From the NCBI RefSeq assembly GCF_006345805.1, contig NC_042998.1:130014001-130078000 (forward strand): 64,000 bases of DNA, written 5' to 3'. Made by a program: the position numbers and the translations under genes. The stretch comes from Octopus sinensis (taxonomy: Eukaryota). The notes under the pieces are model-generated. The model did not search any database and had not been told where the DNA came from. It saw nothing but the letters and a program-made list of their open reading frames with translations. Below, piece by piece: positions 1,737 through 40,249 of this stretch (its first letter is position 1; each line of letters starts with the position of its first letter).

Positions 1737-1768
<32 letters not shown>

Positions 1769-10974: not shown

Positions 10975-11161
10975 TATTCATATCAATGCATATTTAAAAA
11001 AAAAAACTCTATATCACAATTTTTACCCAAAATACCGTCAGAACACGCATTTGATAGGCTAAACTTGTACAAATGAAATATATGACCGCCTTTAAAGTAT
11101 CATTAGTCTTTCGAAATTATACATACATGTATATAAGTTTGTGTGTGTGTGTGTGTAGGCA

Positions 11162-11209
<48 letters not shown>

Positions 11210-11404
11210 TGCCTACACACACACACACACAAACTTATATACATGTATGTATAATTTCGAAAGACTAATGATACTTTAAAGGCGGTCATATATTTCATTT
11301 GTACAAGTTTAGCCTATCAAATGCGTGTTCTGACGGTATTTTGGGTAAAAATTGTGATATAGAGTTTTTTTTTTTTAAATATGCATTTGATATGAATAGA
11401 CATA
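10969..11404. repeat. Near-perfect 436-bp palindrome centred on (TA)n
   Basis: Arms of about 195 bp differ only by two homopolymer indels; the ORF track gives the same peptide on both strands (11073-11279 +, 11092-11298 -). Confidence 0.95.
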
Positions 11405-15311: not shown

Positions 15312-17408
15312 GCAAAGCATTTATTTTTGATGCTCTAACTCTTCTGCCAATTCGTATCTCGTATATAGCGAATAATGATAATATTTTTGTAAAATAATGA
15401 TATAGGAATAAATCTGCATATGAGAGATTTCTATAATGTGAAAACAAATACTGATATCAGATGTATACGATTTAAAATGAAAAAAAAAAACCAAAACGGA
15501 AGAAAACAGAAAATATGAATCTCCGATTTGGTATACAGTTCTCGTATACAAGCAGATGCTTTATAAGAATTGGAGTTTCGAATCTGACTTGTAAATTAAC
15601 TTTTTGGAAATTATATTCATGTCTGATAAACTATTGTATATATTTATATTAACTATATAGAAGCAAATTATTTTTAGCAATATAACACTGATAAAATATT
15701 GAACAATACAAATTTCTATAAATATGGTATAAATAAAGGTATAATTTTATGGTTTGTGTATTAAAAAACAACAAAAAAAGCGTTTGACATCAATTATAAA
15801 ACAATATATGTCAAACATTCTTACATCCGTTATGTAGTTGGTAAAATATCTTAATGTTTAGCTCCTTCGCTTACACACATCAAAAGCATTCCATTCTTTC
15901 ATTTTTTTTTAAGGCAGTACGAAGTGAATTGGCAGTTGCGTCTAGAAGGTCAGTAGGCGATGGAGAGGCTCCTTCGTTAGCGTGTGACAAACATATACAC
16001 TGTTATAGCAGTAAGAAATTTACTTTGAAGATTTAAATATTTGTTGTACCTGTGAAATATCTTGCAACATGCGAAACACCTTTGGGCAATATTCTTAGAG
16101 ATTGTACGTGATATGTAGCGATATCAAAGGTGTCTTACTCTATAAGCATTCTGTGCCATTCAAATTTTGTATTAATAGAATAATGGTGTCGCACAATCAT
16201 TTTTTTTTCTCAAGATTCGTTGAGCTTAATATGATCTTCATTAGTTGCACTATGTCTTAAACTATTGATGATAAACTATTGATGATAAACTATTGATGCC
16301 TATTAAGTATAATAACGGTATTTAACTTCCATAAACAAGCTTTTCCTACAACTAAATATTATCAAAGTAAGATTCGATTAATTCATAAGGTTGCGGTGAT
16401 TTTAGCCGTTGAAGGCATTAAGAGATGTTCGAAACATTTAAATCCAAGTGTTTCAGATAGAGCCATTGTAGCATATAAACATTTCTGCTATTAAAACTGT
16501 TGTTGTTGCTTATATACAAATAATCGTAGACGAACAAGATCTAAAAATTAAAACGGTTCCACTTGTTGCCATACTATCTTACATTTAGACATATTGCATC
16601 TAAGATTATATTGTCTAAAGCCCTTCACTTTTAAAGTAGAAGAGTGTCGTTTAAAGGAATTTTTTGATTTGTTAGCTGATTGAATGTCCTTAAAAGTTTT
16701 TTCTTAGTGAAACACACCCGTATGCAGCTAGTGTTGTAGAAAGTCACAAGATCTAAAATAGAACTATTTTGTTTGTTGATTTAATGCGTCAACCAATTCA
16801 CTATAGCCGAATTTGACTAATCCCGTTTCCTTGTTTGCTTTCAAGAGATTAACTAAATTACACTGAAATTTCTATCCACATTATACCATATGAAATTTCT
16901 CAACTGCGTTTCGAAAATGTCGACACATATCATTAAAATAACATTAGATTCTAGATTCAACGACACAAACAGTAAAATCCCCGTTAAAAATATTTACTTC
17001 TAAAAGGACAACATGGACGGCTTCTTACATTTTAAATGTTCTGAAAGTAGTATCAAGCAATTATAATAGCTATTCATAATTTGGTATTATATATGAACTG
17101 CTGTAGCTTAGTATTCTAAGACTATAACTTCTTTAGTTTTCGTAGCACAACATACAAAGAAAGTACAAGTAGTGGATATTGCGTTCCTTATGATCCAGGC
17201 TTTGAACAGATCAAAAGATAAGATGAACGTACAAAATAAATTACAGGTACTGACTGCAAATTTAACTCTTTTATCAGCAAGTCAGATAGCATCAATAACT
17301 ACCAAGCCATTCACGTTACCAAAATGATCAATCACAGTGTCGCCATATTTTGACTATGAAAACTAGCTGAAGTATAGGCTTCATATGACTTTTCAGGAAA
17401 CTATTCGG

Positions 17409-17479
<71 letters not shown>

Positions 17480-20238
17480 CAGCAAACAAGCAACGCTACT
17501 AAGCAACAAAGAGAACAAAAATGCTCCGCAAATATAACATCACAGAAAAAGATTTGCCGGAGATAAAAGAAAAGCTGAAACAAGATATCCTTGCCAAAGC
17601 TCAAAGGATCCACCGGTACGAGAAACGCCAACGCTTCTTTGAACAGAACAAAAAGTTCAACTCTGACCCCAAAATGTTCTACCAAGAACTGGGCAAAAAT
17701 AATATAGAAGTCACTGCAGCACCAACGGCAGAAGAATTGGAAGAATTCTGGAGAGAAATATGGTCGGCGAACGAACAGCTAAAAAAAAGGAGTATGAAAA
17801 TAACAAACTCGGCATCTGAACAAATTTGGACCCCCATAACAACTGAAGAGGTCACCCAGGCACTGCAAAAACTAAGCAACTGGAAGGCACCTGGGCATGA
17901 CAAGATCCCCACTTCTGGTTGAAATATCTAACAGAATGCACAAAAGCTGGCTGAAAACTTTAACAGCATACTAGCAGAGCCAGAGACAATGCCTGAATGG
18001 CTCACGAAGGGGAAAACCATCTTAATTCCCAAATCAAATGAAACAACAAAACCAGAAAACTACAGACCAATAACCTGCCTCCCTACTATGTTCAAGGCAT
18101 TTACTGCAGTGATATCGCAAAGGCTGAACAAGCACCTGGACGAAAACAAACTGTTCCCAGAAGAGCAGAAAGGATGCCGCAAGGGCTCATATGGCTGTAA
18201 AGATGAACTAATGATTAATAAAGCCGTAACTGAAGACACCACAGAAAGAAGAAAGGCCTCAGTATGGCCTGGATTGACTACAAAAAGGCGTTTGATAGCA
18301 TCCCCCACACATGGATCCTCGAAACACTAGCCATTAACAAAGTAGCACCAACAATCATAAAATTCATAGAGCACTCTATGAATAAATGGCAAACAGTCCT
18401 ACACCTCCAACAAAAGAGGGACTCATGAAAACCAAAGACATCCCCATTGGAAGAGGAATATTCCAGGGAGACACGCTCTCTCCACTCCTTTTCTGCTTGG
18501 CACTGTCACCTCTATCTGATATGCTAAATAGAAATGGATGCGGATATAAATGTTACGGCAAAACGATCAGCCACCTTTTATATATGGATGACCTAAAACT
18601 ATACGCTGCAAATGACAAACAGCTGGAAACACTATTAAAGACAGTTCATGGATTTACCAAAGAAATAGATATGAAATTTGGACTAGAAAAATGCGCCAAA
18701 GTAACCATGAAAAGAGGAAAACTAGTTAAGAGTAACAACATCACACTAGATAAAACCAATGAAATAAAAGAATTAGACCAAAGCCAAACTTACAAATACT
18801 TAGGAATCCATGAACTAGATAGGACACAACACACACAAATGAAAGACAAAATAAAAAAAGAATATTATAGACGTGTTAGATCAATACTAAAAACAGAGCT
18901 CAATGCTAAAAACAAGATAATAGGTATCAACACTTTAGCTTTCCCAGTTATAAGTTACAGCTACAATATCCTTAACTGGACACGAAAAGAACTGTCCAAA
19001 ATAGATAGGAAAACAAGAAAAATACTGACAAGATCTAGGATGCATCACCCAAAATCTGACATAGAAAGACTATATATACAACGTATAGAAGGTGGTAGAG
19101 GCCTTATACAGCTGGAAAACTACTATAAAATAACCACCATAGGACTGCAAAAATACCTACTTCAGAAGGAAGGAAAACTGATACAGATAGCAGCAAAACA
19201 CGAGCAAAACAAAAAAAACTGTTCTCAGTATTTAAGGAAGCTGACAAATACAAACAATAAATCATACCACCTAATAAACACAAAGAAGAAGAAGAAGATG
19301 ATGAAGAAACAACAAAAGCTATAAAACAAATGAAATCCAAACTAAAAATAGAACAGCAACGAGCCATGATAAAACGATGGCAAGAAAAACCCCTTCATGG
19401 TAAATACTGCACTAAACTAAACGCAAAAGAAATAGACAAAGAAAAATCCCAGCAATGGTTGAGAAGCTCAGGACTCAAAGCAGAAACAGAAGGATTTTTA
19501 ATTGCAGCACAAGACCAAAGCCTCCCCACCAGAAATTACCAAAAACATGTAATGAAAAGAAATATTACAAGTAACTGCAGAATATGTGGAGATGGACAAG
19601 AAACAATAAATCATATTATCTCTAGCTGCCCAGTCCTGGCTAAGAAGGAATATATTCACAGACATGACAGAGTTGGAACCTACATACATTGGAAGCTATG
19701 CCAACATTATGGAATAACAACAGAAAAAAGATGGTATAGGCACACACCAGAAAAGGTCACAGAAAACGAGAAAGCAACCATAAACTGGGATATGCCGATA
19801 CACAGAGATAGAGAAATTAAGGCCAACAGACCAGATATAGTTGTCAGAGATCATGCAGAAAAAAATGCTTTCTAATTGATGTATCAATACCGGCAGATGA
19901 CAACGTGTCTCTAAAAGAAATGGAGAAACTCTCAAAATACAAAGACCTGGAAATAGAGATAACTAGAATATGGAACCTGAAAACAGAAACAATTCCTATC
20001 ATAATAGGTGCATTAGGCATGATAAAAAAATATTCAGACAAATACATAACAAAAACACCAGGACTTACAAACACATATAACATACAGAAAATTGCAATAC
20101 TAGGCACTGTATAAATCCTACGCAGAACACTTTCCATACAATAACCATCAGAGCATCACAACAAATCACAGCACATACCCAAGGCACACAGGGCTGCGCT
20201 CGGTAGTGAAGTGAAAGCACGCTATAAAAATAATACTA

Positions 20239-20243
<5 letters not shown>
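17480..20243 (+). mobile_element. 5'-truncated R4/Dong-clade non-LTR retrotransposon (RT + CCHC + RLE endonuclease) in (TAA)n; frameshifted
   Basis: WKAPGHDKI, PEWLTKGKTILIPK, NYRPITCL, EEQKGC, GIFQGDTLSPLLF, HLLYMDDLKLY, CRICG..ETINHIISSC, RHD, RPDIVV..IDVSIP, KLSKY; (TAA)n on both flanks. Confidence 0.92.
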
Positions 20244-20314
<71 letters not shown>

Positions 20315-20476
20315 CTCTTTTACACGTTTCAATCATTTGAATACAGCCATGCTGGAGCATGCAGTAGCACCTTTAGTCGAAGAAATCGACCTCAGGGCTT
20401 ATACTTTGTAAGCCTAATACTTATTCTATCCATCTCTTTTGATAAACCGTTAAGTTTCGGGGACATAAACATACCA
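20315..20476 (-). mobile_element. SINE body fragment cut off by element C
   Basis: gccatgctggagca...tttagtcga...aagcctaatacttattctat...ggggacataaacatacc, homologous to 590-790 and 44120-44330. Confidence 0.65.
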
Positions 20477-21434
20477 AATGCAGAATATGCATTTCATGTT
20501 CGTCAATGCAACAAACTCAAGAAATATAAGAAAAAACATAACATTACAAACTCGATAGCCAACCGTAGAATTCGTCGTAGCATGTACGAATGTTTATCCT
20601 TACATATCTATGAAAATGGCGGGCTTTTTCGCAATGCATTTCGGTAACAAATTGCCTAGTCGGAATAAAAATTCAGTATTGAACTATTCCAGTGAAAAAT
20701 ATAAATTAACAATTGAGGATAAAATCTTTAAAAGAAATTATCAGTAGTCAGCGTGAAAAACCTCGTAAGAGAAAAAATCCGTAAATTCTTCCTCTTTGAA
20801 AATATTCATTTATATTATATTGAGGGTACTACCACTATTCGTAGATACCAACACGCTAAGAGGGACCAATGCAGTCAAAACTACTAAAAATAAACAAAAT
20901 TTTACCGAATAGTGGTAGTACCCTCAATATAATATAAATGAATATTTTCAAAGAGGAAGAATTTACGGATTTTTTCTCTTACGAGGTTTTTCACGCTGAC
21001 TACTGATAATTTCTTTTAAAGATTTTATCCTCAATTGTTAATTTATATTTTTCACTGGAATAGTTCAATACTGAATTTTTATTCCGACTAGGCAATTTGT
21101 TACCGAAATGCATTGCGAAAAAGCCCGCCATTTTCATAGATATGTAAGGATAAACATTCGTACATGCTACGACGAATTCTACGGTTGGCTATCGAGTTTG
21201 TAATGTTATGTTTTTTCTTATATTTCTTGAGTTTGTTGCACTGACGAACATGAAATGCATATTCTGCATTAAATGCAAAATCACATGTGATATGTAACTG
21301 AATTCTTTTTTTAAAATGATGTGTTTTGAAGTTTTGCATTCGGTAAAATTTTGTTTATTTTTAGTAGTTTTGACCGCATTGGTCCCTCTTAGCGTGTTGG
21401 TATCTACGAATAGTAGTAGTACCCTCAATATAAT
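20477..21434. mobile_element. Hammerhead-bearing element C, 501-nt monomer with fold-back inversion
   Basis: gtaccctcaatataatata recurs with period 501 (ccctc at 20921 and 21422). 20477-20910 is an inverted, circularly permuted copy of 20906-21434. The sense end runs into (TA)n. Confidence 0.8.
21237..21268 (+). ncRNA. Minimal type I hammerhead-like motif (inverted copy at about 20479-20510 has C3>U)
   Basis: tgca-CTGACGA-a ca t-GAAA tgcatat TC-tgca: canonical core, 4-bp stem I, vestigial stems II and III, palindromic ATGCAT. Confidence 0.55.
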
Positions 21435-21856
21435 ATATATATATATATATATATGGAGTTAAACGCAGTTGTTATTGAAATCTTTATAATTTCGACATAT
21501 ATGCAGTAATCACATTCGGTTAAAATGACTTATTGATGCGTTTGTTTCTTTTTTTTCTGAGAGGATTGCATTGTTTTACATCATTTTATTCTTTCTCGAA
21601 TAATACTGATGTTTTCTCGAAACATCTGTCGTAAGTATAGAGATTTGAATAACACCTGCGTTTAATTCCCTTTATTTATTTATGTGATATAAAAACATTT
21701 CACCAAAACCTGGAATTTCTACCTTTATAAGTAGGCTGTTACATCCTTGGTACTTATGTGAATTTTTGCTACCCTGCTAAATATTTATTTACTTTATCCG
21801 TGTTATATATAAACATTGAAAAAATACGCATACATACATACATACATACATACATA

Positions 21857-21971
21857 TGCTCGAAACGTTAAACCCTCCTTCTTTCCTTCTTTCCTGAGCA
21901 TCCAATAATACTATATTTGTTCCACGTCCTCGCGTTGTTGTGTTTTTTTGTGCTTTCTTGTTTGGATTAAC
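21857..21971 (+). mobile_element. 5'-truncated pLTR-like fragment ending in (TA)n
   Basis: Starts at gctcgaaacgtta (3' half of the hammerhead-like motif), pyrimidine-rich body, 3' end ggattaac(TA)n; same layout as 10085-10277. Confidence 0.5.
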
Positions 21972-21989
21972 TATATATATATATATATG

Positions 21990-22040
<51 letters not shown>

Positions 22041-22054
22041 ATGCATGCGTGGGC

Positions 22055-22640
22055 ACACGACGGCACTAAACGTGTACAACAAAAAAACGAAGTACGAGTA
22101 TATGGAATACAAACTATTTATTCGAACAATGAAAGGCAGAAGTAGAAAACAAGACAAACAACATAAAGAACGACCAAACAGTTGGCTGTTTTTTCTACTC
22201 TCGTATTTCGAGCTTTTAACAACAATATACGCTTTCGATAAAACAGTTGCTCCCGCAAAGTAAATCAAATAAAATTTGGGATTTTGCGGTGGGTCAAAAT
22301 TGGTAACACAAACAGGACTGTGAAAACAAATACGAAGGTCTGATAAGCCTAAATGAGGTTGTAGTGGTGAACACATAAATCAAGCTTGGGCAGGAGACAC
22401 AAGAACACGTCTTCCTTGTTCCAGCTACAAAGGTGAGAAAGAAACACAAGTTAGAATAAATTAAAATGGCAGATGGTCACGTGGGAGCCACGTGAGCAAG
22501 GAAGGGGCGTGAGAGAGAGAGAGTGACAATGTAATAGGCTAGAATAGTGTGAGAAGAGGAGGTAAATAATGAGAGAGAGAAAAACGAAAGAGTAAAAGAT
22601 CGTATACAGTACGCATCAGAATTAAGATAAAACTTATTTG
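22055..22640 (-). mobile_element. Probable PLE pLTR-like relic
   Basis: Minus strand of 22186-22246: ctgtttt atcgaa agc...gctc GAAA t acgaga gta gaaaaaacag, a decayed hammerhead-like fold; abuts a (GT)n tract. Confidence 0.4.
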
Positions 22641-23460
22641 GAAGAGAATGCGTGGCGTTCAATTGTATAGTTATGTAAATGATATATGTATGTATGTATG
22701 TATGAATGTATATATGTATGTATGCATATATGTATGTGGTCAAATTTCGCCAAGGTAGTGTTTGTATTTCATACTACCGAGGTTGATAAAATAAATAACA
22801 GTTGAACACTGGGATCGATGTAATCGACTTAGCTTGCGCTCTCCTAAATTGGTGACCTTGGGTCAAAATCTGAAACCAATATCATTTACTTAAAACAGCA
22901 TGCAGTAAGCACGCAAGGCAAAATCATTAGTCACCAGCTTTATCCTGGGGTCAACGTGAGCGACTTAAACCTACCCTAAAATCGCTGGCCTTGTCACAAA
23001 ATTTGAAATCATTATTAATATTACATATGCTTTCCCATATTTAACTGCGAGGTCCACAAATATATGATATGACTATGAATTTGTTTTGTCTAAGTAAAAT
23101 TACTCAAATTTACGTTTACGAGCGTACATTTGAAAAGTATATTTCCGATATATCGGCATTCATGTGTCAGTATAAATCACAAGATGGCAAGAAAAAATAC
23201 ACTTCCGGAAATTATTCATTCATTGCACTCATGCCGTTTGATTGATTGCATTATAGTGGAGCAAATAAGCATGTTGGCTAATAGTTACGAACATTAAATA
23301 CAGTATAATAAAATAAAGTATAATCATAAAGTAATGTTTTACATTAAAGTAAACTTCAACATACAACGGTATATTCAAATGAAGTTTAATATAAAACATA
23401 TCTGCCTCTCTGTCTATCTATCCATCCATGTATGTATGTATGTATGTATGTATGTATGTA

Positions 23461-23495
<35 letters not shown>

Positions 23496-25185
23496 CCATC
23501 CATCCATCCTTCCATCCATCTGTCCATCCATCCGTCTGTGCGTTTGTGCATTCGTCCGTCCGTCCGTCCGTCTGTCTGTATTCTCTTTGTCTATCTATCT
23601 ATGAAACGAAATTGAACTAAGAGAAATAACTTAGCAAATATTTCAACAATAAAGTCGCACAAAACAAGAGAAACTCTGATTTATTGATCCTATATCCGCT
23701 TCCAGAGACTATAGATCAACTTCTTGATGGCAACTGGTACAAAATCCAAATGAGAAAAGAAAGTAATCACAACAATTAGGAATTTTCCAAATTTGACAAT
23801 ACAGTCTAATTGTCTGAATCGTACTAGCAGATATTTCTACCGCAACAGGCATCACATGCCCAGCAATTATCCAAACTTATCTTCAGCAAACGAGACACTT
23901 GGACAGACGCTCTCATTGCATAGAGAGTGGAGACAAATACCACAAGTCCTTCTACCCAACTCTGTAATATTCTCTCAAATTGCTACATAAATACTTTTAG
24001 AAACATATGTATTCTCCTGCTGACATACAAACCGATAAATTCTATGAAAAGATAAATTTTCAACTCGCAACTGCTGCGAATCTTTCTCTCTCAAGTCACC
24101 TCTTTTGATAATCAAAATGCTGCGTTCTTGGTAAATAGAATTCATGAATTCTAGCGCTTCAATTATGCTCTCCGCTGGAGTTTTGGAGTAAAACGAGGAA
24201 AAACTTATCAATAAGAGCTTCATAGTAATTGTGTATGAAAGATATTAAATAGGGTCATCACACCATTCCTAAGTATAGAACACGTACACATACACACACA
24301 CACACATGTACAGGCATATATAAAAATATACAGATACAAACACGCATATAAGTACACAGAAATACACGCATATTATGAAAGGAACAGAGTGTGAGTGACA
24401 CACACAGTTATATATACACACACTCTCATAAAAACACTTGATGATAATCTTAATCATATTACCACCATGAATAATATTCAATGAAGAACTTCTATATCTT
24501 CAAATCTAGGATATGCGTTTAATTACTTGATTTCGAACTTACGGAGGCACAATTGTATCAGATTTTAATACACAACTTCCATGAAAGATACGTCCAATAT
24601 GTAGGAAACCTCTCATGGATATGTATTGATCAATACATATACATATACGTCTGGATGTATACATGTGTTTGAATATGTATGTGTGTGTCTGCTGAGGTGC
24701 ATGAATTGGTATTATACATATATTTAAACATACACACCGCGCGCACGTAAAATATATATATATACACACACACACATGTATATAGTTGTATATATAGGTT
24801 GTATTATACATATCTTTAAATATACACATGTATACATAGAAATGTATAAAGGAATATAAATATATATAGATAAATATATACATATATATATGTGTATTTA
24901 TGTACGTGTACATGTACGTGTCTATGTACCTATATATCTATTTATATGAATGTATGCGTGATTCTGTTTTTATAAATTAAGCCTGCACATATACAGACAT
25001 ACAAGAACAACAACAGACTCAGACACGCACAGACGCTCGCACACACACACACATACACACACACACACACACATACACACACACACAGAACACAACGCAA
25101 TCATAAATCTTTGTTTATATGTACGTGTAGGTAGGCACTAATTTGAAATATAAATATATAGGCTTCTACAAAATAAACAATAGTT

Positions 25186-25249
<64 letters not shown>

Positions 25250-25451
25250 TAATAGTAATAAACAAATAGCTACAAATATAAATAGCTTCACAGGATTCGC
25301 TTATTTTTGTATTTCATTCAATTATATTTGCGAAAGCGTCAGGTTTACTTGTTTATAAACACAAATTTCGTTTTATATTCATATATATCATACACACGTA
25401 ATATATACATATATAAAAACATGTGTCCAAATATGTGCGCAAACATATACC

Positions 25452-25535
<84 letters not shown>

Positions 25536-28500
25536 CTTTAATAATAATTACGTTTGTGTGTTAACAATAAATAATGACATAAAGAAGCGAACAAACGACT
25601 GATTAAATAAATAGATAACTTCAAAAATAGGATAACTATAATGAATGGATAATGATATTATTTAAATACTACCACAGATCCTATTCCCAAACACGTTTTC
25701 AATGGCACTTAGAGGTATGTAGCTGTATGTAAATATTGCTCGCTATGTGCTTATGCATGTGCATATGTACATAATTATATTTCATACACGTATACACATG
25801 CATTTGTGTATGTATGCATCTATACAATGCATTTGTGCATTCAAATACATGTATATACTTGAATGCATGCATGTATACATGTATGTGTGAATATATACAT
25901 ACACATACAAACACGCACACACATATGCATACGCAAGCTTGCCTATTTCTTTATGCACATATCTGTATCTATTTATATCTATCTGTCTATACATATATTT
26001 GTACTTGTGTATATGATTGTATGTATGTATGTATGTTTGTATGTATATGTGTATGTATGTAGTTACGTACATATATATATATATATATATATATAAATGT
26101 TAGATAGTTAGATATAGATTGATAGATACATACATCATACAAGGTATGTATGCTTGTGTGTATTTGTGCATGTGTATATCAATATATATGTATATATCCG
26201 AATGCAAATCAAAGGAAACTCATGCTCCTCCGCTGTATACTCACTGATCTTTTGCCAACTCCCATTAAATTAAATATCTAGTGCGAACAGGAAGACACAC
26301 ATTGAAAGCTGTGCGAACTGTTTTGCAATCTCTAAATCAATTGAACTGTACAGAGTTAACGCACACAAGCAGTAACCATCACAAAAAGCAAAACAAACAT
26401 CTGTGTGCTCCGCGTTAGTTTTTTTAGTTTGTATCAAGCCTCTCTCTGAGATATGAGAGTGGCTCTGGAAAGGCTGAATTCTTTAAGAAGTCATTCCTTT
26501 TTTTTAAAATAGCAAATGTGAACTTTTTGAGCATTTGTTTCTCTCTTGCAGGTCGAAGAAAACGTAGATGTTTTGTCAGTTGTTATTGTTTGCATTCAGC
26601 TTAATCCTACACCATCAAATATTTGGTATGACGCGTTTTTGTCGTGAGAATCTTACCATGTGTATCATAAAATATCTTGTTCACTATGCGCTCTGTTTTT
26701 CACAAGCTGTACTTCGATGGCAATTTGGTTCATATTTACAGTATATCCATTGGTTGCACAGAAAAAAGTGTTGCCTTTCTATGGCTGTTTGTTATAACTA
26801 GAATATCACCAGGAAGCATGATAAAAAGCATCGTAGCCGTAATTATCACGTCACCTTCCAGGCTCAGAGATATCTTTTCTAAGCAGTCAATTATATTTTA
26901 AGGGAATGACCTCTAGTTCAAGTTTAATGGAACCTATATGCTGATATTGAAATATGACTTACAGGAAATTGAAATTGTATAGTGAAACTTACAAAATTGG
27001 AAAGTTTGGTCTCCTTGTACTCGTAATTACGCTGTATTCTCCCTTTGTCTTCCTACCTTCCATGGATGCAGCGCCACGACCACCCATTTATTTATTTTAG
27101 CTGTGGATGCGATATCGCCTTTTCCTATAGAATTAAGGTGTGTCTCACTATCAGCAACTCGAATAGTAACTCGGAATTTCTGTCTCGTTATTAGTGCGCT
27201 ATAGACTTTTACACTATATTGAGAACTTATATTCTTTTGACAGTGTTAAATTTGGTGCGCTTTGTTTCCAGCAGTCATAGTCACCAGGCAAGCCTAGTGA
27301 GAGAGACGATTTAGCCACTGACAATCTTATCATGAAATATGTCGTACCACATTACATGTTGCACGTTCTACATGCACACTCTACAACTCATCCATCTGAG
27401 TGTATATATATATATATATATATATATAAGGCTGAACCGAACTATTGTAAACGATACGTTCGAAAAGATATAAATGACAAATGATGAAAGAAAGAGATAG
27501 AGACAAATTTGGAACGGCTTATGTTGAGACCATGAAAACATTTGAAAAAAAAAACAACTTGAAACTGAAATGTATGCATTGAGAAACAAAGAGAAGTTTG
27601 TGAAAATGGACATAAGGATATATTTAAAGGGTAAACTGAAGTAAAATTAAAGGGTGACCTGGAATCTAATGCGATGTTTTGGTCGAATGTGTGTTGGACA
27701 AGAAGTGTCTGGCCCAGGGTTGGTAATATATGTGGTGGACGACAGAGCTTGCAGCATAGAATGGAGGCGACATCAAATACACTGTATATGTACAGTTTCA
27801 TGTATATATATATATATAAATACTTTTACATATGCATATAAAGAAACTGACAGTTGCATTAATTTACATGCATGATATTTGTGTGTTTTCGTAGAGTAGA
27901 AACTGTAGGAGAAATTAAATGAGATATTATATGTGTATGTGCCTATCATGCATAACACGATTTATATTTTCAAACTCATATAATACTTGCTTATGTACAA
28001 AATCTGCCATAAAGCCACATATACTCACAAAAATACCTACCCACCTCCACACTCTAACTAACGTATCTGTATGAAATCGTATTTATTCGGTACACAATAC
28101 ATCAAAAGAAATGCTTCTATTACGATAACAATAATCATTGTTATTTTCTCTTTCTCCGCTATTGAACTTGCTATTATCTTTTACAATTATCATCATTATA
28201 ATGATAATTGAGTAGATGGCGGTTCTAGCAGAATATCACTATGAAATGCCTTGAGAGAGTTCGTTCTAGCTCTTTATGTTCAAATCCGACCGCATACGAA
28301 TATTCTTGTCATCATTTCAGTTTCGATAAAATTAATTACACCAAAATAATACAGCTGATTCGAACGCAATACTTCTCTTCCTGAAAATGGGAGACTTAGT
28401 ATGTTAGTAGTCATTTCGGTAAGAATAATACTGAGCTTAGTAGGAGAGAATCGGAAGAGTGGTGACAAAATATCTGACACTATTTAATTATATAATTTCA

Positions 28501-28550
28501 AATCTTGCTGAAGTCGATTTTAACTTTCAATGTTGTGGCATCGATAAAAT

Positions 28551-29129
28551 CTTTTCTACTCTAGGTACAAGGCCCGAAATGTTAGGGGAAAGAGTCAGTC
28601 AATTAGATCGACCCCAAAACGCAACTGGTACTTAGTATATCAACCCCAAAAGGATGAAAGGCAAAGTCGACTTTGGCAGAATTTGAACTCAGGACGTAAG
28701 TACAGATGAAATACATATTTATTTACTGCCCACAAGGGGCTACACACAGAGAGGACAAACAAGGACATACTAACGGATTAAGTCGATTATATCGACCCTA
28801 GTGCGTAACTGGTACTTATTTATTGACCCCGAACGGATGAAAGGCAAAGTCGACCTCGGCGGAATTTGAACTCAGAACGTAGCGGTAGCCGAAATACCTA
28901 TTTCTTTACTACCCACACGGCGCTAAACACAGAGGAGACAAACAAGGAGAGACAAAGGGATTAAGTCGATTACATTGACCTCAGTACGTTACTAGTACTT
29001 AATTTATCGGCCCCGAAAGGATGGAAAGCAAAGTCAACCTCGGTGGAATTTGATCTCAGAACGTAACGGCAGACGAACTACGGCTACGCATTTCGCCCGG
29101 CGTACTAACGTTTCTGCCAGCTCGCTACT
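28551..29129 (-). mobile_element. Head-to-tail SINE trimer in one 18-bp TSD
   Basis: Three Deu/Nin-core units; TSD ttgtg(g/a)catcgataaaat at 28533-28550 and 29130-29147. Confidence 0.85.
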
Positions 29130-29524
29130 TTGTGACATCGATAAAATAGATTACCAATGTAAAGAAGAAGCTAAGTTCAGTCAAGTTTCACCTCACTCCT
29201 AATTAACTCTTGGTCATACGATACTCATATATTATGACTCAAAGAATAATATATGGTGCGCGGCAGAATCGATAGAGTACCGCACGAAAATGCTCTACGT
29301 GATTTAGGTGTGGGTCCTTACGTACTCAACGCAAACTCCACTGAGGGCAACTTCAAATTTCATTCTTCCAGGATGTATAAAATTACTGCCAGTTAATTTT
29401 AAGGAGTCGTGTTAGCGGACAGTTGGCCCCAGAAAAGTGCGGCGTTTTATATTTATGTTAGACATCATTACTGTAAATATAGTGAAGGGTAATGAAAATT
29501 ACATGTCACAGAAAACTAATTATT

Positions 29525-29725
29525 TCTCTCTACTATAGGTACATGGTCTGAAATTCTGGAGGATTACATCAACCCAACTGCTTAACTGGTACTTATTTCA
29601 TCTGGCCCTAAAGGGTGAAATGTAAAGTCGACCTCGACGGAATTTGAGCTCAGAACATAAATACGAACGAAGTGACACAAATCATTTTGTCCGGCATGCT
29701 AACGATTGTGTCAGCTCACTGCCTT
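29525..29725 (-). mobile_element. tRNA-derived SINE (older copy)
   Basis: aactggtacttatt...aaagtcgacctcgacggaatttgagctcagaac...catgctaacgatt. Confidence 0.75.
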
Positions 29726-30008
29726 GTCATAGAAAAGTAATTAAGAAGAAATAATAGCAGCTATAATTTATTTGGTAGTTCAATAGAAAAATAAAAGTAG
29801 CTTTTATCAGTTTGATACTGCAGTAGAATCTAGGAGTTACTACTTTGCAAAATATTTAATCGCGTTCTTTATGTTCGTGTATTAGTATGATATCTACATA
29901 TTTCACAAAATTTGCACAAGTATTCCCAAATCCTGATACAATGATAAAAATCTATTATTTCAATACATGTACGGATTTGTGCCAGTATTAGACTCCCAAG
30001 ATAATATA

Positions 30009-30213
30009 TTTTTCTTTATTACCCACAAGGGGCTAAACATAGAGGGGACAAAGTATTAAGTCGATTATATCGACCCCAGTGCGTAACTGGTACTTAATTT
30101 ATCGACCCCGAAAGAATGAAAGGCAAAGTCGACCTCGGCGGAATTTGAACTCAGAACGTAACGGCAGACGAAATACGGCTACGCATTTCGCCCGCCATGC
30201 AAACGTTTCTGCC
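30009..30213 (-). mobile_element. tRNA-derived SINE with 19-bp TSD
   Basis: TSD agactcccaagataatata at 29990-30008 and 30214-30232. Confidence 0.9.
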
Positions 30214-33200
30214 AGACTCCCAAGATAATATAGGTGATTAACATATCGTGCAGGTTATTCCAGTCAGACGCAGTCATCCCATCTGTTTCACACAAATATA
30301 TTCAATGTGTTCTTCCTGTTCTCCAACACCTGTGCGTGGTTTATCTGCTATTTCTGGCATGTCGAGTTACAATATATACGATATTCGTTAATCAAAATAT
30401 TGGGTGAGCTAATCTGCAAAATGTCAGGTCAAAATGCAATGCTTTATTACTTAAATCTATCTTTTTTCTGTCTAGTAATAGTCTCTGCGCGGTCAACGTT
30501 GCTTTTCACTCCCCCATTTTGACAGGATTATTTTTTTATCAGTTATAGTCTGCAGATGAGTCAGTTCTCTCCCCCATGTGCACTATAGCAGTTATAGACT
30601 TGGGCCATTGTAATAAATTTTCAACAACAACAATAGTTGTATGGTAATGATTATAATTGTTATTTTATTATTTGTATTCGCTTGTTTTTGTTCTTTACTC
30701 TATTATTATATTGTTGCTGTTCTTTTCCATTTGACAACGTATAATGGCAATATCTTGTTCATGGAAATTACTCATGGAATGAATAACTTTGCTTTATATT
30801 ATGGCTATTGATTTTATCTGAATTGCAGCTGGCTGACTATAGAGACATTTGTCGTTTGTTGTCATGAACGTCACAACATACATTTGCATTCCTCTACACA
30901 TGGAATGGTGAGTGCATAATTTATAAAAGAAATCAATATTGTTCCATATTGTACAGTATCACACAGGGCTAAATCGATACATCACCGAACACTGAGTTCG
31001 AATTATGGTCCCAAAGCGTGCCAACTAGAAGAGAGTCCCATTATATATATTAGCGATATTTAGAGTTTATTCAGTAGAGTAACTCTTTTATGTACCACTG
31101 AACATTTTGTCTTCGTATATAGATTATTGTCTTGGATTTATTGGAATGTCTATTCCACGTCTACAAACCCTGTAAGTTCAGTTTTCGGTATTTTCTGTTT
31201 ACTCTTTCAGTACTTCTAGTAATTAGAAAGTTGAATTATGTGATTAGGATCTGTATCACAACCACACTACACACTACGATAGAAGTAACGATACACAAAT
31301 GTGTGTATTGCCAAATCAAGTCTTGGACAGGCTGTCGGCTCCATTATTGTCATGTCAGCATAATGTCTATACAGCCAATTGTATATAAGTAATACGAATA
31401 GTAAAATATCAACTCGTGCAATTGTAATATATTTGACATGGAAAGATTTGCATGGGGATCGATCCTTCAGGTGATTTCTATTTCGTGAACCAAACTTCAT
31501 CATTTAGGGTGGTTGCCTCAGTCCACTTTCAAACTTACTTTGATATTATATGTGGTTTCATTCAATATTTCATAGTTATATTGACCAGTTTCTTACAATT
31601 CCGATATTAGAGAGAAACAAGTCAATGCCAGAAGATTCTGGGATCAACCATCTCAGCAACAAGTATTTCGTAAGTGTAAGTTTAGATTTTACATACTAAG
31701 ATTGTAGAAGATAAAAAAATGTCATTCAATTACATGAATTTTTAGTCCTCATAATTTCTTCGTCTACTCGATAGCAACCGCTGACTTTATATATCACACT
31801 TATTAGTTTATGTCAGAATTTGGTTTTTCCTCACCGACTCAGTTCAACAAAAGTTTCCTTGCGTTCCAGATTTTATGTTTCCTAATTAATTGATATCATT
31901 ATTGTTTTTGTTAGCTCTATGTTGCAACAAAATAAAAGGGAGTCTATTTTACAGTCAGTCTTTTACTTTGATATAAATAAAGCACTCGAAACAAATTTAA
32001 AGGTCAGAAATTTAGATTACCATAAAACTATAGATATATAGAAAGAGAGTGAATGTGAGAAAAATTGTGAGGCATTGTGGTCGGAAAACTCAAGCACCAG
32101 ATTAAATATCGAGGTTATTTGGGTTTTCTCTTCCAAATTTTTACGTCTTCAACTTGAATTTCATTCCTTCCAGACCAAAGCGCGACGGATAATTAAAAAA
32201 ACTGATTTTGTTTCAATGTGATAAATGCACATCGGATTTCAGTATGTGTGGATATCTGTAGGGAAAAAGCTCAGCATTTCAAGTCGTAACATTTATAATA
32301 CCAGGAAAGTTAAAATTACGGCGAATCTATTTGCAATTAAATTTGCAAGTACAATGACCAAATGGATAGCTATTAAATTACTAGCTCATAAAAGAATACT
32401 TCAAATCAAATTGGGCGAATCATTGTATTCCTAAACTGTATATTTTAATGTGTTGTTGAATTAACGCAGCTCTTGGGAAATGACTTTTGGAAATACTTGG
32501 CCAATTACAAACAATAGACTATACTCTACAGATTTTATTTGCGATTTTCTCTTCTTATATCTCTTAGCAACAAATCACCAGGTGTAGTGGTGTGTACCTT
32601 GTGCATCGGATTTCCATTGAGTCTGTGATTAAGATAACACTCAAATAACACGGGCCCACTGTCTGAAAATAATCACAACAAACTTGAAACAACATGTAAC
32701 TTAAAACAACAGTAATTTAATAATGGCAAATGTCTCGTTACCTTGCAGTGCTTGTTTCAAATCTTGAAATGAATTGCAGAGAAATGTGATGCACACAGTT
32801 CTATAGTACCTCAACTACGCTGAATCTAGGATTTGAAGTTTCTTTTCCGTTATAAGTAGTAAAGAGGATTTACTATAACTCTTACGCATAGTTATAGAAA
32901 CCAACAAACCAAAGTGCTAGGCTTTTGCATTCAATTAACCTGATGCAAATCGCAAGATTTCCCCTATATGTCAGGTGGCTATTTCCTTCTTCAATGTCAG
33001 ATAAAGAAAGATGCATCCGATATTGTTGTCTGTGATATGTTAATAGGTACGAACACAAGGGCTAGAACTCATTTCATAAGTAAAGCTCAGTAAGAATTGC
33101 CCTTGGATTAAACAACATAAACAACAGCTGTGCAAAGAAAGTATAAGCACTAAATTACATGACATAGTGTGTTTTCTAAAATCGTTCTTGGAATTCGTAG

Positions 33201-33304
33201 ACAATACAAGCGTGTATATTCTTGTTACTAAATTCCATGTAATTCCTTATCTAGGTGTCACATAATCGAAATAATGTTTGGTTATATCGTCCAAATATAA
33301 AAAG

Positions 33305-33556
33305 CAGCGAGCTGGCAGAAACGTTAGCACGCCGGGCGAAATGCGTAGTTGTATTTCGTCTGTCGTTACGTTCCGAGTTCAAATTCCGTCGAGGTCGACT
33401 TTGCCTTTTATCTTTTCGGGGTCGGTAAATTAAGTACCAGTTACGCATTGGGGTCGTGTAATCGACTTAATCCGTTTGCCTGTCCTTGTTTGTCTCCTTT
33501 GTGATTAGCCCTGTAGAAAAAAAAAAGAAATAAAGAAAGAGGATAGTAAAGAAATA
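33305..33556 (+). mobile_element. tRNA-derived SINE with 18-bp TSD
   Basis: TSD tatatcgt(c/t)caaatataa at 33283-33300 and 33557-33574. Confidence 0.88.
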
Positions 33557-34547
33557 TATATCGTTCAAATATAATGAACCATGTAATTTTGAATTTGTGT
33601 ATTGTTTTGTTTTACCTTTACCAACGATATTTCTGCAGTAACATCAGAAGGTGTCCGGCTCATAATTACAAGAACATTGGTTCGGTTCCTGACCTAGCAG
33701 CGGGTCTGTGTTGTAAGGGCAAAGCATTTTATTTTACGTAGCTTTTCTAAAGCCAGCTGTAATGTGTATCACCCAGTTACTAGTGCAGCCATTTTCTACT
33801 AGTTTCTTGGCGTTCGACAGGGTCACGAACAAGCGAGCCAAGAAGGTGTCTGTGTTTGCTCGAAACCACAGAGATACGTAAAACAGCAAAGCATTGCTCA
33901 TGTTACTGGCGGATGGTTATAGAGTGTACTTGTATTGTACTGTGACATGCCTATTATTTCAATAACTTAACGTTTTATGGGTAGAGATATTGATATAGAA
34001 TATATTAATTCATTGGACGAATATTCAAATATTGTGAAAGGGAATGAAACATGATTTTTTTCTTGTGGATAGCAAACATATGTAATATAATTTTGGTTAT
34101 ATTTGTCTGCAATAGAATATTTCCAAGGTGTAGTAGAACACTTTATAGCTTTGGGCTGAGTAATATAGCAAATATCTATGCTTATAAAGACTCTGTGTTT
34201 AATTCTATGCCTTAATGTAAATTAAAACCTATAGCTGAGCCACGATGTTATGCCATATACACATACATAGATACATGCATATATATACATAAATTCTGTG
34301 CCTATAATTTCGATGTGTGCAAAGCTTAATCCAGATACATTTTTTTTCTCCCAGTTTTTATTTTTTAAAATTAATCCGTCTGATTCTCTCCTCACTCCTT
34401 TCTGTAGAGAATGTAGACTCAAAGCGCCAAAGACTTTTCCATTTTCCCTGAGCTTCAACCTAATACACTTTGTTGGCCCCTCATCTATCTTCCTGTTATT
34501 GTTTGTTTTTTGTACACTTTTAAACTGTATATATATATCGGAGACTC

Positions 34548-34802
34548 GGAGACCCCCTTCGGTCACGACATAGACCATGGATTGCACCTAGAAAGTTACC
34601 CTCCTAGACACAAGTCCGGGCGAGGTTGTTTATGGAAGACCAGCAGTCGCCCATACATACCAGCCTCCCCTCTCCACGCCACCAGTATTATCCAAGGGAA
34701 AGACAAAGGTCGATACAGCTTGGCACCAGTGACGTCGCAACTCATTTCTACAGCTGAGTGAACTGAAGCAACGTGAAATAAAGTGCCTTGCTCAAGAACA
34801 CA
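34548..34802 (-). mobile_element. Second SINE family, head missing
   Basis: Colinear with 43730-43975 (ggattgcacctagaa...gccgatacagcttggcacc...gaaataaagtg.cttgctcaag). Confidence 0.75.
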
Positions 34803-34804
34803 TT

Positions 34805-34842
<38 letters not shown>

Positions 34843-34843
<1 letters not shown>

Positions 34844-35490
34844 TTTATTTAAAGCAGCAGAAAATTCAACAAAACCTGTTACTCTGAGTTTCCCGTTGCC
34901 GTTCATCGGACAGTTTTTGCTAGCAAAATCTGTCCGGCGGTGTATATTTCGTTTGCCACTGTTATTTATGACATCGTTCGTGCGTTTGTACTGGTTTTAG
35001 CTTTGGGGTTTTAGGGTTGGGGTGAGGGTGTTAGGATTAGGGTTAAGGTTTTAGGGTTATAGTTAGGGTTTCCGAAAATAGTAGCTGAAAAACAGGAAAA
35101 AAGAAAAAAACTAAAAGCAGTAGAAATGCACGAATGATTTTGGTGGTGACATGAAGTAAACATACTTCAGATACACTCGTTTATTCATCCGAACTTAAAT
35201 GGGATGAAATAAGTCATAAATAACAGTGACAAACGAAATATACACCGCCGGAAGTTGTTGTTGACAAGCAACAGCAGTAATTTTATTCCGTTGAATACAC
35301 GTCATTGATTGGTTGAAATTACCGAAATACGACAACTTTAACACGAAATAACTTTAAAAATAGAAACTTTTCTCAACAAAACTAAGAGTAAAAGATATTT
35401 TATATGATACATTCTACCAGTGTCCGAAGTTTGAAAGTGTTTAGTTACAAAAATTAATTTCTCGATCTGCCGTTGAAATGGAAAAGATCC
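34843..35490. mobile_element. Unclassified non-autonomous element with 39-bp internal inverted repeats enclosing degenerate TTAGGG-like repeats
   Basis: IR at 34934-34972 / 35213-35251 (1 mismatch); ttagggtt-type repeats at about 34995-35070. Outer limits approximate. Confidence 0.55.
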
Positions 35491-36314
35491 CGCACAATTC
35501 TTTATTTCATGCCATCTTCGTTGATAGAAATAGTAAATTAAGGGCTACTGCTTCATTCTTATAGCAGACCAATAACAAATATCAGATACCAAAAGAAACA
35601 AATACACAATACACCGAAAAAATTATTACATATAACCGTTAGAAGATATGGATGTACAGACGCCCAAATATACGTGGTCTGGCGCACGTAAACACGCTTT
35701 TATGAACTATATATGGTTGTTCCGGTGGCGGTAGCGGACTATTATTTCCCATTAGCCATATAATCACGCGTGCTTATGTGCACCACAGATTCATATGAGG
35801 TTCTCTCATCGTAAATAACGCAGTATTTTGCATTGTAGCACAATATCCACTTTTAAATCGGGGAAAATGTTACATTTTGTTATCAATACCACATCAACCG
35901 TTGTTAATCACACACACCCTCGTTTGGGTGATTCCTACTTTTGAGGTTCTGCTAGTTATGAAACATATGTAGCTTCGTATGTACATATATATGCTTTATG
36001 TCGTCTATGAAATCTGAGAAAGACGATTCCACAATTTCTTGCTGAACAACCTGTGCAGTTCATTGATTTATAATGAAATTTTTGCACCATACTTGAACTC
36101 ACTTCATTGAATCGACGTGGCCTGTATAGGTGCATGGTGTCTCACACGTCAGTTATCGAGGTGATAGAAAGTAACGTGAAATGTGAAATTATGTGTTTTA
36201 CTCAACAACGCAATGTACCATCCGGTCCGGGGTTCGAAACGTCAAGTTTGTGATCTTCGGTATTACACCCTAACGACTAGCCCATTCTTGTTCATTTAAA
36301 GGCATATATTTATT

Positions 36315-36955
36315 CTTTTCTACTATAGGCACTAGATCCGAAATTTTGGAGGAGGCGGGGCAGTCGAGTAGATCGACCGCTCCCCATGTACGCAACTGAT
36401 ACTTAATTTATCGACTTCGAAAGGATGAATGGCAAATCGACCTCGGCGGAATTTGATCTCAGAACCTAAAGACAGATGGAATACTTCTAAGTATTTCGCC
36501 CAGCGTGCTAACATTTCTCCCAGCTCGTCACCTTATTTACTTATTTCCCACAAGGGACTAAACACAGAGGGGATAAACAAGAACAAACAAAGGGATTAAG
36601 TCGATTACACCGACCACAGTGCATAACTGGTACTTAATTTTTCGACCCCGAAAGGTTGAAAGGCAAAGTTGACCTCAGCGGAATTTGAACTCAGGACGTA
36701 ACGAGAGACGAAATACCTATTTCAATTTCTTTACTACCCACAAGGGGCTAAACACAGAGAGGACAAACAAGGACAGACAAACGGATTAAGTTGATTAGAT
36801 CGACCCCAGTGCGTAACTGGTACTTAATTTATCAACCCCGAAAGGGATGAAAGGCAAAGTCGACCTCGGCGGAATTTGAACTCAGAGCGTAACGGCAGAC
36901 GAAATACGGCTACGCATTTCGCCCGGCGTGCTAACGTTTCTGCCAGCTCGCCAAC
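36315..36955 (-). mobile_element. Head-to-tail SINE trimer
   Basis: Three core units; possible TSD gc(a/c)tatatttatt at 36302-36314 and 36963-36975. Confidence 0.85.
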
Positions 36956-37601
36956 TTAAGATGCCTATATTTATTAGCGATGATGTTATGTACATACTTA
37001 CGGAGATTATTGACAAAATCTGCTAAATCATTATCGTATCATCGTAAAAAATATTTTGTACAATTTCAACTGATTCTTATACAGTACAGACAAAACAGAT
37101 TGGAGGTTTACGATATTCTGATTTCTTTTCAAAGCCCTCTTGAGTAAGACATATGGGAAAAACATATTAAAAAAGCAGCTTTGAAGAGAATCAAGAATAA
37201 AAACTAAGTATAGTGATTAGATTATGAGTGGAGAAACTTTTACGTGTTGCAACAAATACACTTCACTTAACTCGATAATAATCTCCAATGTTATGGACAA
37301 CATTAGTTCATGTTTTCAAACACTTTGAAATTAAATATAGATAATAATTAGTTTAGGGGAAATTTTTATTGCTAATTACAAAGGGTGAGGGGAAAAATCA
37401 ACAAATATTGTGTTCTTGTCATCTTAGATGTAAGTGCAAAAATTAGTGTTTGATTCTGTTTACTCTGGGGAATCTCACAACTATTATGGCTGACTTCTCA
37501 ATTACATACATAAAGGGTAGCAGAGAAAAATGAACGAGACACGTGAACGTGCAAACAGAGATACTTACGAAAACATATATATACATATACATGTACGTAT
37601 A

Positions 37602-37653
<52 letters not shown>

Positions 37654-37945
37654 ATATACATTTATCTATCTATCTATCTTCCTCTCTCTCTCCCTATATA
37701 TAAAAATATATATATGCACGCGCACATATGCCTATTCATCTACCTATATATATATATATATATATATATATGCATATCTCTCTCTCTATACACACACACA
37801 TACACATACTTATAAATTATGCTTGCATGTTTGTACACATGCATATATATCTACCTATATGCATATATATGTATATTATCACACACACACCTATATATAT
37901 ACACACACACACATATAAATTGTGCTTGAGTATCTGTACTTTGCA

Positions 37946-37996
<51 letters not shown>

Positions 37997-38263
37997 ATCT
38001 ATCTATCTATATCTATCTATCTATCTATCTATCTATATGTATGTATACGTACAATCATTCACGCATATTTTATCGGTTGAACTAGAGTTCTTCCATATTG
38101 GCGTGTCCATATATAGCTGTTATATTGGAAATATGATTTTTACATAAAGACATGTTACTGAGCAGACACACAAGGGTAATAATTAGAGTTAAGCTGATTA
38201 AATCAGGTATAACCTCATACGTGTACCGACCACGTTCTGTCCAATCCCTAACGACACCCAATG

Positions 38264-38300
<37 letters not shown>

Positions 38301-38304
<4 letters not shown>

Positions 38305-38567
38305 CAATTGAGGATAAAATCTTTAAAAGAAATTATCAGTAGTTAGCGTGAAAAGCCTCGTAAGAGAAAAAATCTGTAAATTTTTCCACTTTGAAAATAT
38401 TTATTTATATTATATTGAGGTTACTACTATTCGTAGATACCATACGCTAAGAGGGACCAATGCGGTCAAAACTACTAAAATAAACAAAATTTTACCGAAT
38501 ACAAAACTTCAAAGCAAATCATTTAAAAAAAGAATTTTAAATGATTTGCTTTGAAGTTTTGCATTCG
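38301..38567 (-). mobile_element. Partial second copy of element C with its own short fold-back
   Basis: 38301-38535 matches 20706-20910 and continues as the reverse complement of 21340-21300; 38535-38567 inverts 38496-38527; abuts (TA)n. Confidence 0.85.
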
Positions 38568-38976: not shown

Positions 38977-40249
38977 CTTACTTGTCAGGAAAGTTCTTGT
39001 GGAATTTTAAATTTTTGTTTTAAATGATGTATTTTCAAATTAATTTTCATTTAATTACTTTGACTTTATATATCATTTGAAAGCCCGTTTTTCGCTCTAT
39101 CTAATCGTGTTAATTTTTTTTTAATAATTAGGCCATTTTTCCCGACGTTTAATACAACATGGACAAAACGCAAATTCGCACAACTTTCTTATTCCAGTTT
39201 AAACTAGGCTGAAAAGCTGCTGAAACAGCTCGCGATATCAACGATATGTTTGGCCCAGGAACCTCTAATAAACATACAGCACAATCGTGGTTCAAGGACT
39301 TTCGTAGCGGTGACGAGAGTCTTGAAGATGATAAGCGTAGTAGTCAACCATCGGATGTTGACAACGATCAACTTAGAACCTTAGTGAAAGCCAATCTACG
39401 CACAACTGTTCGAGAGCTTGCTTCTGAATTAGACATAACGTGTACGACAATTTCCAACCACTCGAAAGAGATTGGGAAAACAAAAATACTTGAGAAATGA
39501 GTGTCGCACGAATTGAACGACAACTAAATAAAACACCGATTTGAAGTGTCATCTTCCCTTCTTTTACGCAACAAGAACGACCCGTTTCTCGGTCGGATTG
39601 TGACTTGCGATGAAAAGTGAATTCTTTACGACAACCGGCGACACTCAGCTCTGGGGTTGGACGTCGACGAAGCTCCACAGCACTTCCCGAAGTCAAAGTT
39701 GCACCAAAAGAAGATCATGGTGACTGCTTGGTGGTCTGCGGACTGTCTCATCCATCACAGTTTTTTTGGATCCAGGCGAAACCATTACGGTCATTGTCAG
39801 CAAATGGATGAAATGCATAAGAAACTCCGACTATAACAGCCAGCTATGGTCAATAACAAAAGGAGCAATTCTTCTCCACGACAACGCTCGGCCGCACGTC
39901 GCACAACTGACCCTGTAGAAGTTGAACGAATTGTGTTACGAACCTCTGCCTCATTCGCCATACTCACCAGACCTCTCGCCTACTGACTACCACTTTTTCA
40001 AGCATTTCGACAACTTCCTGCGTGAGAAATGCTTCAAAAACCAAGACGATGCCAAACACGCCTTCAACGACTTCATCGCCACCAGGACGCAGGATTTTTA
40101 CGCTACTGGCATAAATAAACTTGTTTCGCGTAGGCAAAAACGTGTTGATTCTGATGGTGTTTATTTCCATTAATAAAGTTTTGCTTAAGCCGAGATATGT
40201 GCATCTGAATATAAAGGTTAAAACCGCAAGAACTTTCTTGACAACTTAA
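38977..40249 (+). mobile_element. Full-length mariner DNA transposon (about 1.27 kb)
   Basis: TIRs ..ttgtcaggaaagttcttgtgg / ccgcaagaactttcttgacaacttaa, TA flanks, internal transposase. Confidence 0.9.
39159..40173 (+). pseudogene. Inactive mariner DD34D transposase (Hsmar1/cecropia-like)
   Basis: MDKTQIR..FKLG*KAAETARDIN, WFKDFRSGDESLED, RIVTCDEK, LHDNARPH, HSPYSPDLSPTDYHFF; stops and frameshifts. Confidence 0.9.

Follow-up and report, generated by a model that had tools for sequence, protein, structure and literature searches.

The 64,000-nucleotide (nt) stretch of Octopus sinensis DNA analysed here (RefSeq assembly GCF_006345805.1, contig NC_042998.1, positions 130,014,001 to 130,078,000, forward strand), hereafter the window, contains two insertions, loci A and B, of a short non-coding repeat referred to as element C, whose copies end at different points of the same 501-nt unit. 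This element is very probably a non-autonomous, retrozyme-like passenger mobilised by a Penelope-like element (PLE). The position of its ends tips the balance slightly towards a variable start of copying, guided by homology and located at TA-like patches inside the RNA. Judging from the order of unit sequences in the copies, the template was longer than one unit.

The period of the element is 501 nt (unit position 1 lies at 20906 and position 502 at 21407), because in locus A a 100-nt direct repeat, made of unit 433-501 followed by 1-31, flanks unit 32-432 on both sides. The unit has a GC content of 0.31 (31%) and contains no open reading frame (ORF): over the six frames of the repeated unit, the longest stop-free stretch is 47 aa in sense and 96 aa in antisense, and the reverse transcriptase (RT) and GIY-YIG ORF of an autonomous PLE is absent. 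Locus A is composed of two arms placed head-to-head and facing outward. The sense arm (20906-21437, plus strand) covers unit 1-501 and 31 nt of the next unit, with a 3' end at unit 26-31, and is followed by a (TA)n tract (21433-21454, plus strand) overlapping the unit by exactly 5 nt. The inverted arm (20477-20910, minus strand) covers unit 433-501 then 1-365, with 2 differences from the unit in 434 nt, and the two arms share a 5-nt microhomology at the inversion junction (20906-20910), where unit 1-5 and unit 433-437 are reverse complements of each other. In locus B, the sense arm (38294-38536, minus strand) runs from unit 396 to 501 and then from 1 to 135/143, thereby crossing the site where A ends, and is capped by a 33-nt inverted 5' arm (38535-38567, plus strand, unit 405-437) forming a fold-back with a 6-nt loop. 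The (TA)n tract at the 3' end of B (38267-38301) overlaps the unit by 2 nt exactly, or by 7 of 8 nt when one mismatch is allowed. The B sense arm is identical to the unit at 231 of 243 aligned columns, with 6 gap columns, and B is about 5% diverged from A.

An inverted, 5'-truncated copy thus adjoins the 5' end at both loci, joined head-to-head through 2-5 nt of microhomology, and both loci have a (TA)n end; the direct repeat of locus A makes it a partial tandem (pseudo-LTR, for long terminal repeat). All three long arms cross the unit junction. Tandem repetition amounts to at most 1.06 units in the window, which contains no run of two or more units with a complete hammerhead in each. No target-site duplication (TSD) is apparent, the longest words common to the flanks being 6 and 4 nt long and located away from the junctions, and neither blastn nor nhmmer detected a further copy in the window. 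The inverted arm of A interrupts mid-body a repeat that we take to be a short interspersed nuclear element (SINE), the far half of which is missing. A MITE-like element (for miniature inverted-repeat transposable element) with imperfect terminal inverted repeats (21455-21670) lies directly to the right of the TA tract of A. The near-perfect palindrome at A could in principle be an assembly or long-read fold-back artefact, as its arms are identical to each other at 364 of 365 positions. This explanation is scarcely credible: the 64-nt spacer consists of genuine unit sequence, found again in B and at the A 3' end, 2 of 434 positions distinguish the arms, and the same anatomy is shared by B and by an unrelated element at 841-1503.

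An initial annotation had described two copies of a 501-nt unit ending at different points, the first in an (AT)n run and the second reading through that site to stop about 110 nt further on. This description is borne out in full: the (TA)n of A follows unit position 31, B stops at 135-143, and the two TA-joined ends are 106-112 nt apart along the unit, so that the single 3' end of PLEs, give or take a tail of 30-40 nt, is not observed. The element has in fact four outer ends rather than two, at unit 31, 135-143, 364-365 (20477) and 437 (38567), and no TA tract is present at the last two, which terminate the inverted arms. Both of these lie 0-2 nt past a TGCATT hexamer, of which the unit has three, a post hoc observation made on two ends; that at 20477 is also located 5-6 nt beyond the putative cleavage site of a hammerhead-like motif described below. 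Breakpoints of A and B coincide at unit 433-437, as can be expected when there are eight of them.

The two TA-joined ends had also been described as AT-rich patches able to pair with a TA repeat. In a simulation, every position of the unit was joined to (TA)n in both phases and the overlap was scored. The A end overlaps by 5 nt exactly (2.4% of the simulated junctions) or by 8 nt with one mismatch (2.7%), and the B end by 2 nt exactly (24%) or by 8 nt with one mismatch (2.7%). This value of 8, the maximum with one mismatch, is reached by three patches of the unit only, namely 26-34, 135-143 and 230-238, so that both ends fall on top-ranked patches. The joint chance of such overlaps at both ends ranges from 0.006 (exact) to 0.0007 (one mismatch), and the two ends lacking TA score low. 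The broader proposal that reverse transcription can start at any TA-like patch holds in so far as the TA-joined ends lie on such patches beyond chance; the word "any" extends it from two loci, and at B a later microhomology deletion into the TA run could have produced the end instead of priming. The contrast with elements of fixed end is genuine, since another PLE family of the window stops at a single site before TA.

Such a deletion is central to a first alternative, in which the element would be a PLE-type passenger with a fixed 3' end near position 31, and B a longer tandem or inverted arm cut back later from an internal TA-like patch to the nearby (TA)n. There are 43 TA tracts of 16 nt or more in the window, copy B is about 5% diverged from A, and PLE copies carrying microhomology deletions have been reported (PMC3846280). 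Fixed ends are also documented: the supplement of PMC8557442 states that Hydra-1_Obim copies "terminate at same site", and the window itself contains a PLE-type 3' repeat family, found downstream of a PLE-type ribozyme remnant and used here as a control, in which one fixed end precedes TA in all four aligned copies, one of them divergent (10146-10277, plus; 59305-59215, minus; 60668-60792, plus; 21856-21971, plus). A hammerhead-like remnant is present in two of these copies, and the one at 60.7 kb follows a GIY-YIG-like frame (59276-60040). The deletion scenario nevertheless requires a second event in a copy which, like A, has an inverted 5' cap and ends 3' in TA and is otherwise a complete insertion, and it leaves the end of A on a top TA patch as well; it is considered rather unlikely.

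A second alternative retains both ends as original and attributes them to two fixed, structure-defined start sites of the PLE RT, separated by an unusually long PLE tail of 110 nt, the TA-likeness resulting from selection for efficient priming. The PLE tail has been explained by two internal start sites (PMC11167929), a 13-bp hairpin is present in the stretch after the end of A (z -2.4 for 20906-21005), and the arms of the 841 element differ by about 40 nt across a hairpin. The published tails are however of 30-40 nt (PMC8557442), and element C has four different outer ends (31, 135-143, 365 and 437), which makes this explanation quite improbable.

Homology-guided variable starts are preferred over these two alternatives, even if several points weigh against them. 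The number of loci is two, and the overlap measure was selected after the ends had been seen. The exact overlap at B is only 2 nt, expected by chance in 24% of cases, TA is absent at two of the four outer ends, and the later deletion considered above predicts the same 7-of-8 overlap. The 841 element overlaps TA weakly, by 4 nt (4% for the exact measure, 20% when one mismatch is allowed). The element shows no similarity to the five PLE-related stretches of the window against which it was compared (best E 0.13), where a partner PLE was not found. Poseidon, the one PLE studied in vitro, initiates at two adjacent, fixed sites lacking homology to its target (PMC11167929). Finally, the principle of homology-guided internal priming is not new; only its rule-like use on a repeating PLE passenger would be.

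The enzymes of a PLE would be needed in trans because the element has no ORF, and the PLE machinery, which the initial annotation did not name, accounts for its inverted arms, its TA target and its ribozyme. In the proposed mechanism, a tandem master locus would be transcribed as a multimer, possibly converted into a circle, and a PLE GIY-YIG/RT protein supplied in trans would nick a (TA)n tract. The nicked TA end would then anneal to an AU-alternating patch of the longer-than-unit RNA and prime complementary DNA (cDNA) synthesis there, and such priming at an internal patch would make a fixed 3' end unnecessary. The 5' side of B may have been closed by snap-back of the cDNA. On the 5' side of A, a second cDNA may have been primed from the other DNA end annealing via 5 nt, which would involve about 2.2 units of template or two RNAs, and target DNA would be lost during 5' closure. 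A single priming followed by snap-back was ranked below two primings for A, since two template switches would be required. All three differences found in locus A are C-to-T changes when read on the minus strand; deamination of the cDNA was considered as their cause and dropped, the difference in the arm of B being opposite in polarity to the inferred cDNA.

The RNA template had been proposed to be circular or multimeric. Of this claim, a template exceeding one unit stands, and the circle does not follow, since a tandem precursor gives identical sequences; a circular template is accordingly rated as possible but doubtful. The sense strand folds better than its shuffles (z -2.9, none of 100 linear shuffles being as good) and better than the antisense strand (z -1.5), and the circular fold is comparable (z -2.86, 1 of 60 shuffles as good), so that folding does not distinguish a circle from a linear multimer. 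The most ambitious version of this idea, in which the element is an RNA circle parasitising octopus Penelope enzymes without ends of its own, its copies being circular permutations set by TA pairing, both broken DNA ends acting as primers and a 32-nt hammerhead devoid of stem II cleaving with the help of a protein, is unlikely. If true, it would directly prove, from genomic sequence, that animal retrozymes undergo rolling-circle reverse transcription, and it would place this hammerhead among the smallest natural ones. The same folding data bear on a further alternative, in which the copied RNA is the opposite strand, self-priming at the central hairpin, and the TA-joined ends are truncation points joined by microhomology, which are variable in every retroelement. 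Antisense self-priming has been proposed for head-to-head PLE palindromes (PMC3846280), and the centre of B is a fold-back with a 6-nt loop. The TA-ending strand is however the one that carries the hammerhead core, just as in the window's fixed-end PLE family, it is also the better folded one, and the central junctions of A and B are unlike, all of which renders this alternative very improbable.

The hammerhead-like motif of the plus-strand arm of A (21237-21268), reported initially as an extremely reduced, 32-nt version of this ribozyme, is present as described, with a 4-bp stem I, intact conserved core boxes, a UH site, a 4-nt stem II spacer and a putative cleavage site after 21264. Using a descriptor that permits this short spacer, the combination of core, UH site and 4-bp stem I was found in 7 of 20,000 shuffles (36 with G-U pairs allowed, 279 for the core alone), and the motif therefore exceeds chance. 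The 4 bp of helix I, within the usual 4-5 bp, are identical in sequence to those of the ribozyme in the 841 element, and the alignment of the two motifs reveals a common scaffold, the motif of element C being 10 nt shorter in stem II and 3 nt longer in stem III. One pattern, built from these very motifs, matches exactly the two arms of locus A and the two arms of the 841 element, and none of 100 shuffles. A helix II with a G10.1-C11.1 pair is lacking: even the loosest core descriptor in print asks for a spacer of 7-17 nt, against 4 nt here. In the register giving cleavage after 21264, stem III does not form a palindrome. The second copy, in the inverted arm (20479-20510, minus strand), carries a C3 to U change in the core without the compensating A at position 8. 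Locus B does not include the hammerhead region, and the window thus holds a single independent copy of the motif.

The suggestion that a dimer would cleave after 21264 finds no structural support. Forced into the active fold, the dimer has an energy of +5.3 to +7.6 kcal/mol, compared with -9.7 for its best fold, and the forced active monomer +5.0 against -2.8, whereas the 841 ribozyme used as a control reaches -22.8 as an active dimer against -23.2 for its best fold; these energies leave aside tertiary contacts and the help of proteins. Two other sites were examined by eye and rejected: cleavage after 21261 would use a 6-nt palindrome but without stem I and 3 nt out of register, and cleavage after 21270 a 5-bp stem III hairpin but with 3 unpaired nt before stem I, likewise 3 nt out of register. 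No hammerhead stands among the 150 of 202 whole-window Rfam matches listed, nor among the 3 matches over 20450-21440, a result that is uninformative because Rfam also missed the well-formed ribozymes at 800-1740 (31 matches). The motif is read as hammerhead-derived and probably decayed, and the ribozyme of copy A is likely a relic dispensable for mobility. About 730 bp separate the paired motifs of A; in truncated PLEs, minimal hammerheads have been described as pairs on opposite strands with 100-700 bp between them (PMC4209133).

The window, which is about 34% GC and dense in microsatellites, contains several PLE-related sequences. The element at 841-1503 is built on an unrelated 362-nt tandem unit and displays the same head-to-head, read-through and TA-ended anatomy, with arm ends differing by about 40 nt that span a hairpin, in the manner of a PLE tail. 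It carries a well-formed minimal hammerhead with U3-A8 covariation (1295-1333, plus; 1014-976, minus), a core variant described in PMC4209133, and is a better retrozyme candidate than element C. Next to it, a degenerate PLE (1536-4900) retains pieces of the RT at 3.1-4.4 kb, and both strands of its 5' palindrome (1549-1657) carry hammerhead cores; its inverted arm ends at an AT-rich patch beside the TA tract common to the 841 element. Over the piece used as query, the degenerate RT shares about 70% identity with two Octopus sinensis proteins, which themselves show weak RT matches and a DKG motif, a diagnostic feature of PLEs (PMC8557442). The 254-aa frame at 59.3-60.0 kb (59276-60040) resembles GIY-YIG/HTH_animal clusters and is a lead only. 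Of 9 window fragments scanned with Pfam, 5 gave nothing, among them all PLE pieces. Four short motifs, representing three sites, gave no exact match in the supplement of PMC8557442, which is a weak test. The unit of element C has no match in phage or plasmid records and its 24-nt pattern no exact match in bacterial or archaeal genomes, as expected for an animal repeat.

Other repeats complete the picture. A non-LTR retrotransposon with RT fragments and (ATA)n on both sides (17385-20290) is presumably of the TAA-targeting R4/Dong type. A Tc1/mariner-like transposon (51796-53434) has a broken DDE transposase, encoded on the minus strand, between inverted repeats of 233 nt, and a mariner helix-turn-helix remnant is present at 39213-39500. 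A near-perfect 193-nt fold-back centred on (AT)n (10993-11378) is the source of spurious microRNA matches in Rfam. An abundant SINE-like family (28537-29125, 36301-36951 and a dozen dispersed copies), locally arranged in 183-nt tandem units, is presumably related to octopus SINEs. Short inverted-repeat elements are found at 54561-54852, 34933-35252 and 56822-57628, the first of which begins right after an (AT)n tract.

No publication was found, in a mostly open literature, on an octopus retrozyme or on variable starts guided by TA patches in a PLE passenger, and element C may already be catalogued in Repbase or Dfam. PMC8557442 counts the choice of the start by PLEs, their preference for microsatellites and the origin of their tandem and inverted forms among the open questions, and the circle-template cycle of animal retrozymes remains a proposal (PMC7229834). 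If genomic copies of the element pile up at the three TA-like patches, PLEs targeting TA would be steerable by RNA-DNA pairing, and a non-coding passenger would need no defined 3' end. If no such pile-up is observed, the element would be an ordinary non-autonomous PLE derivative with a dead ribozyme.

Among known systems, a close likeness is seen with the PLEs that possess an endonuclease (Neptune, Naiad, Hydra and Penelope/Poseidon) and their non-autonomous pseudo-LTR (pLTR) derivatives (PMC8557442, PMC3846280, PMC4209133), which share with element C the partial tandem, the inverted 5'-truncated arm, the (TA)n target, the lack of a clear TSD and a hammerhead core in the repeat. PLE insertions are indeed described as partial tandems with an adjoining inverted 5'-truncated copy, a (TA)n preference and TSDs that are hard to find (PMC8557442; also PMC8969392, PMC3846280), and the Naiad and Hydra PLEs of octopus are listed with this (TA)n preference in the supplement of PMC8557442. 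Element C differs from them by the absence of an RT/endonuclease ORF, by ends that are about 110-200 nt apart instead of a 30-40 nt tail, and by the lack, within the window, of any link to a known pLTR. The purified Poseidon protein of Anolis cuts AT-rich DNA, extends both strands and starts inside the RNA, ribozyme cleavage being dispensable (Frangieh et al. 2024, PMC11167929). Internal initiation, AT-rich targets and the extension of both DNA strands are therefore common to both systems, but in element C 110 nt lie between the TA-joined ends, and these ends have 5-8 nt in common with the target.

Animal non-LTR retrozymes (Cervera and de la Pena 2020, PMC7229834; Li et al. 2026, bioRxiv 10.64898/2026.07.22.740005) resemble element C by a short, GC-poor, non-coding unit, a type I hammerhead core, a well-paired predicted fold and their co-occurrence with PLEs. 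The latter are their proposed mobilisers, in a proposed cycle where cDNA of more than one unit is produced from a primed circle (PMC7229834; 10.64898/2026.07.22.740005). With its 501 nt, the unit is slightly over the 150-450 bp given in PMC7229834 and within the 51-972 bp of 10.64898/2026.07.22.740005, a study whose text lists no cephalopod. Element C, known from its DNA sequence, departs from these retrozymes by its head-to-head arms, its TA-joined ends, a tandem of at most 1.06 units and the lack of a canonical hammerhead.

The contrast drawn initially with long and short interspersed elements, supposed to have a fixed 3' end, was overstated, since internal priming is documented for both L1 and Alu (PMC4859970, PMC3415434). 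In the internal and twin priming of these elements, as is proposed here, pairing of the target overhang with a patch inside the RNA produces an altered 3' end, and 5' inversions arise with small changes at the junctions (PMC4859970; PMC3415434). Internal priming is however an occasional by-way from the poly(A) default of L1 and Alu, whereas element C would use it as a rule, with a template that repeats and a target made of TA.

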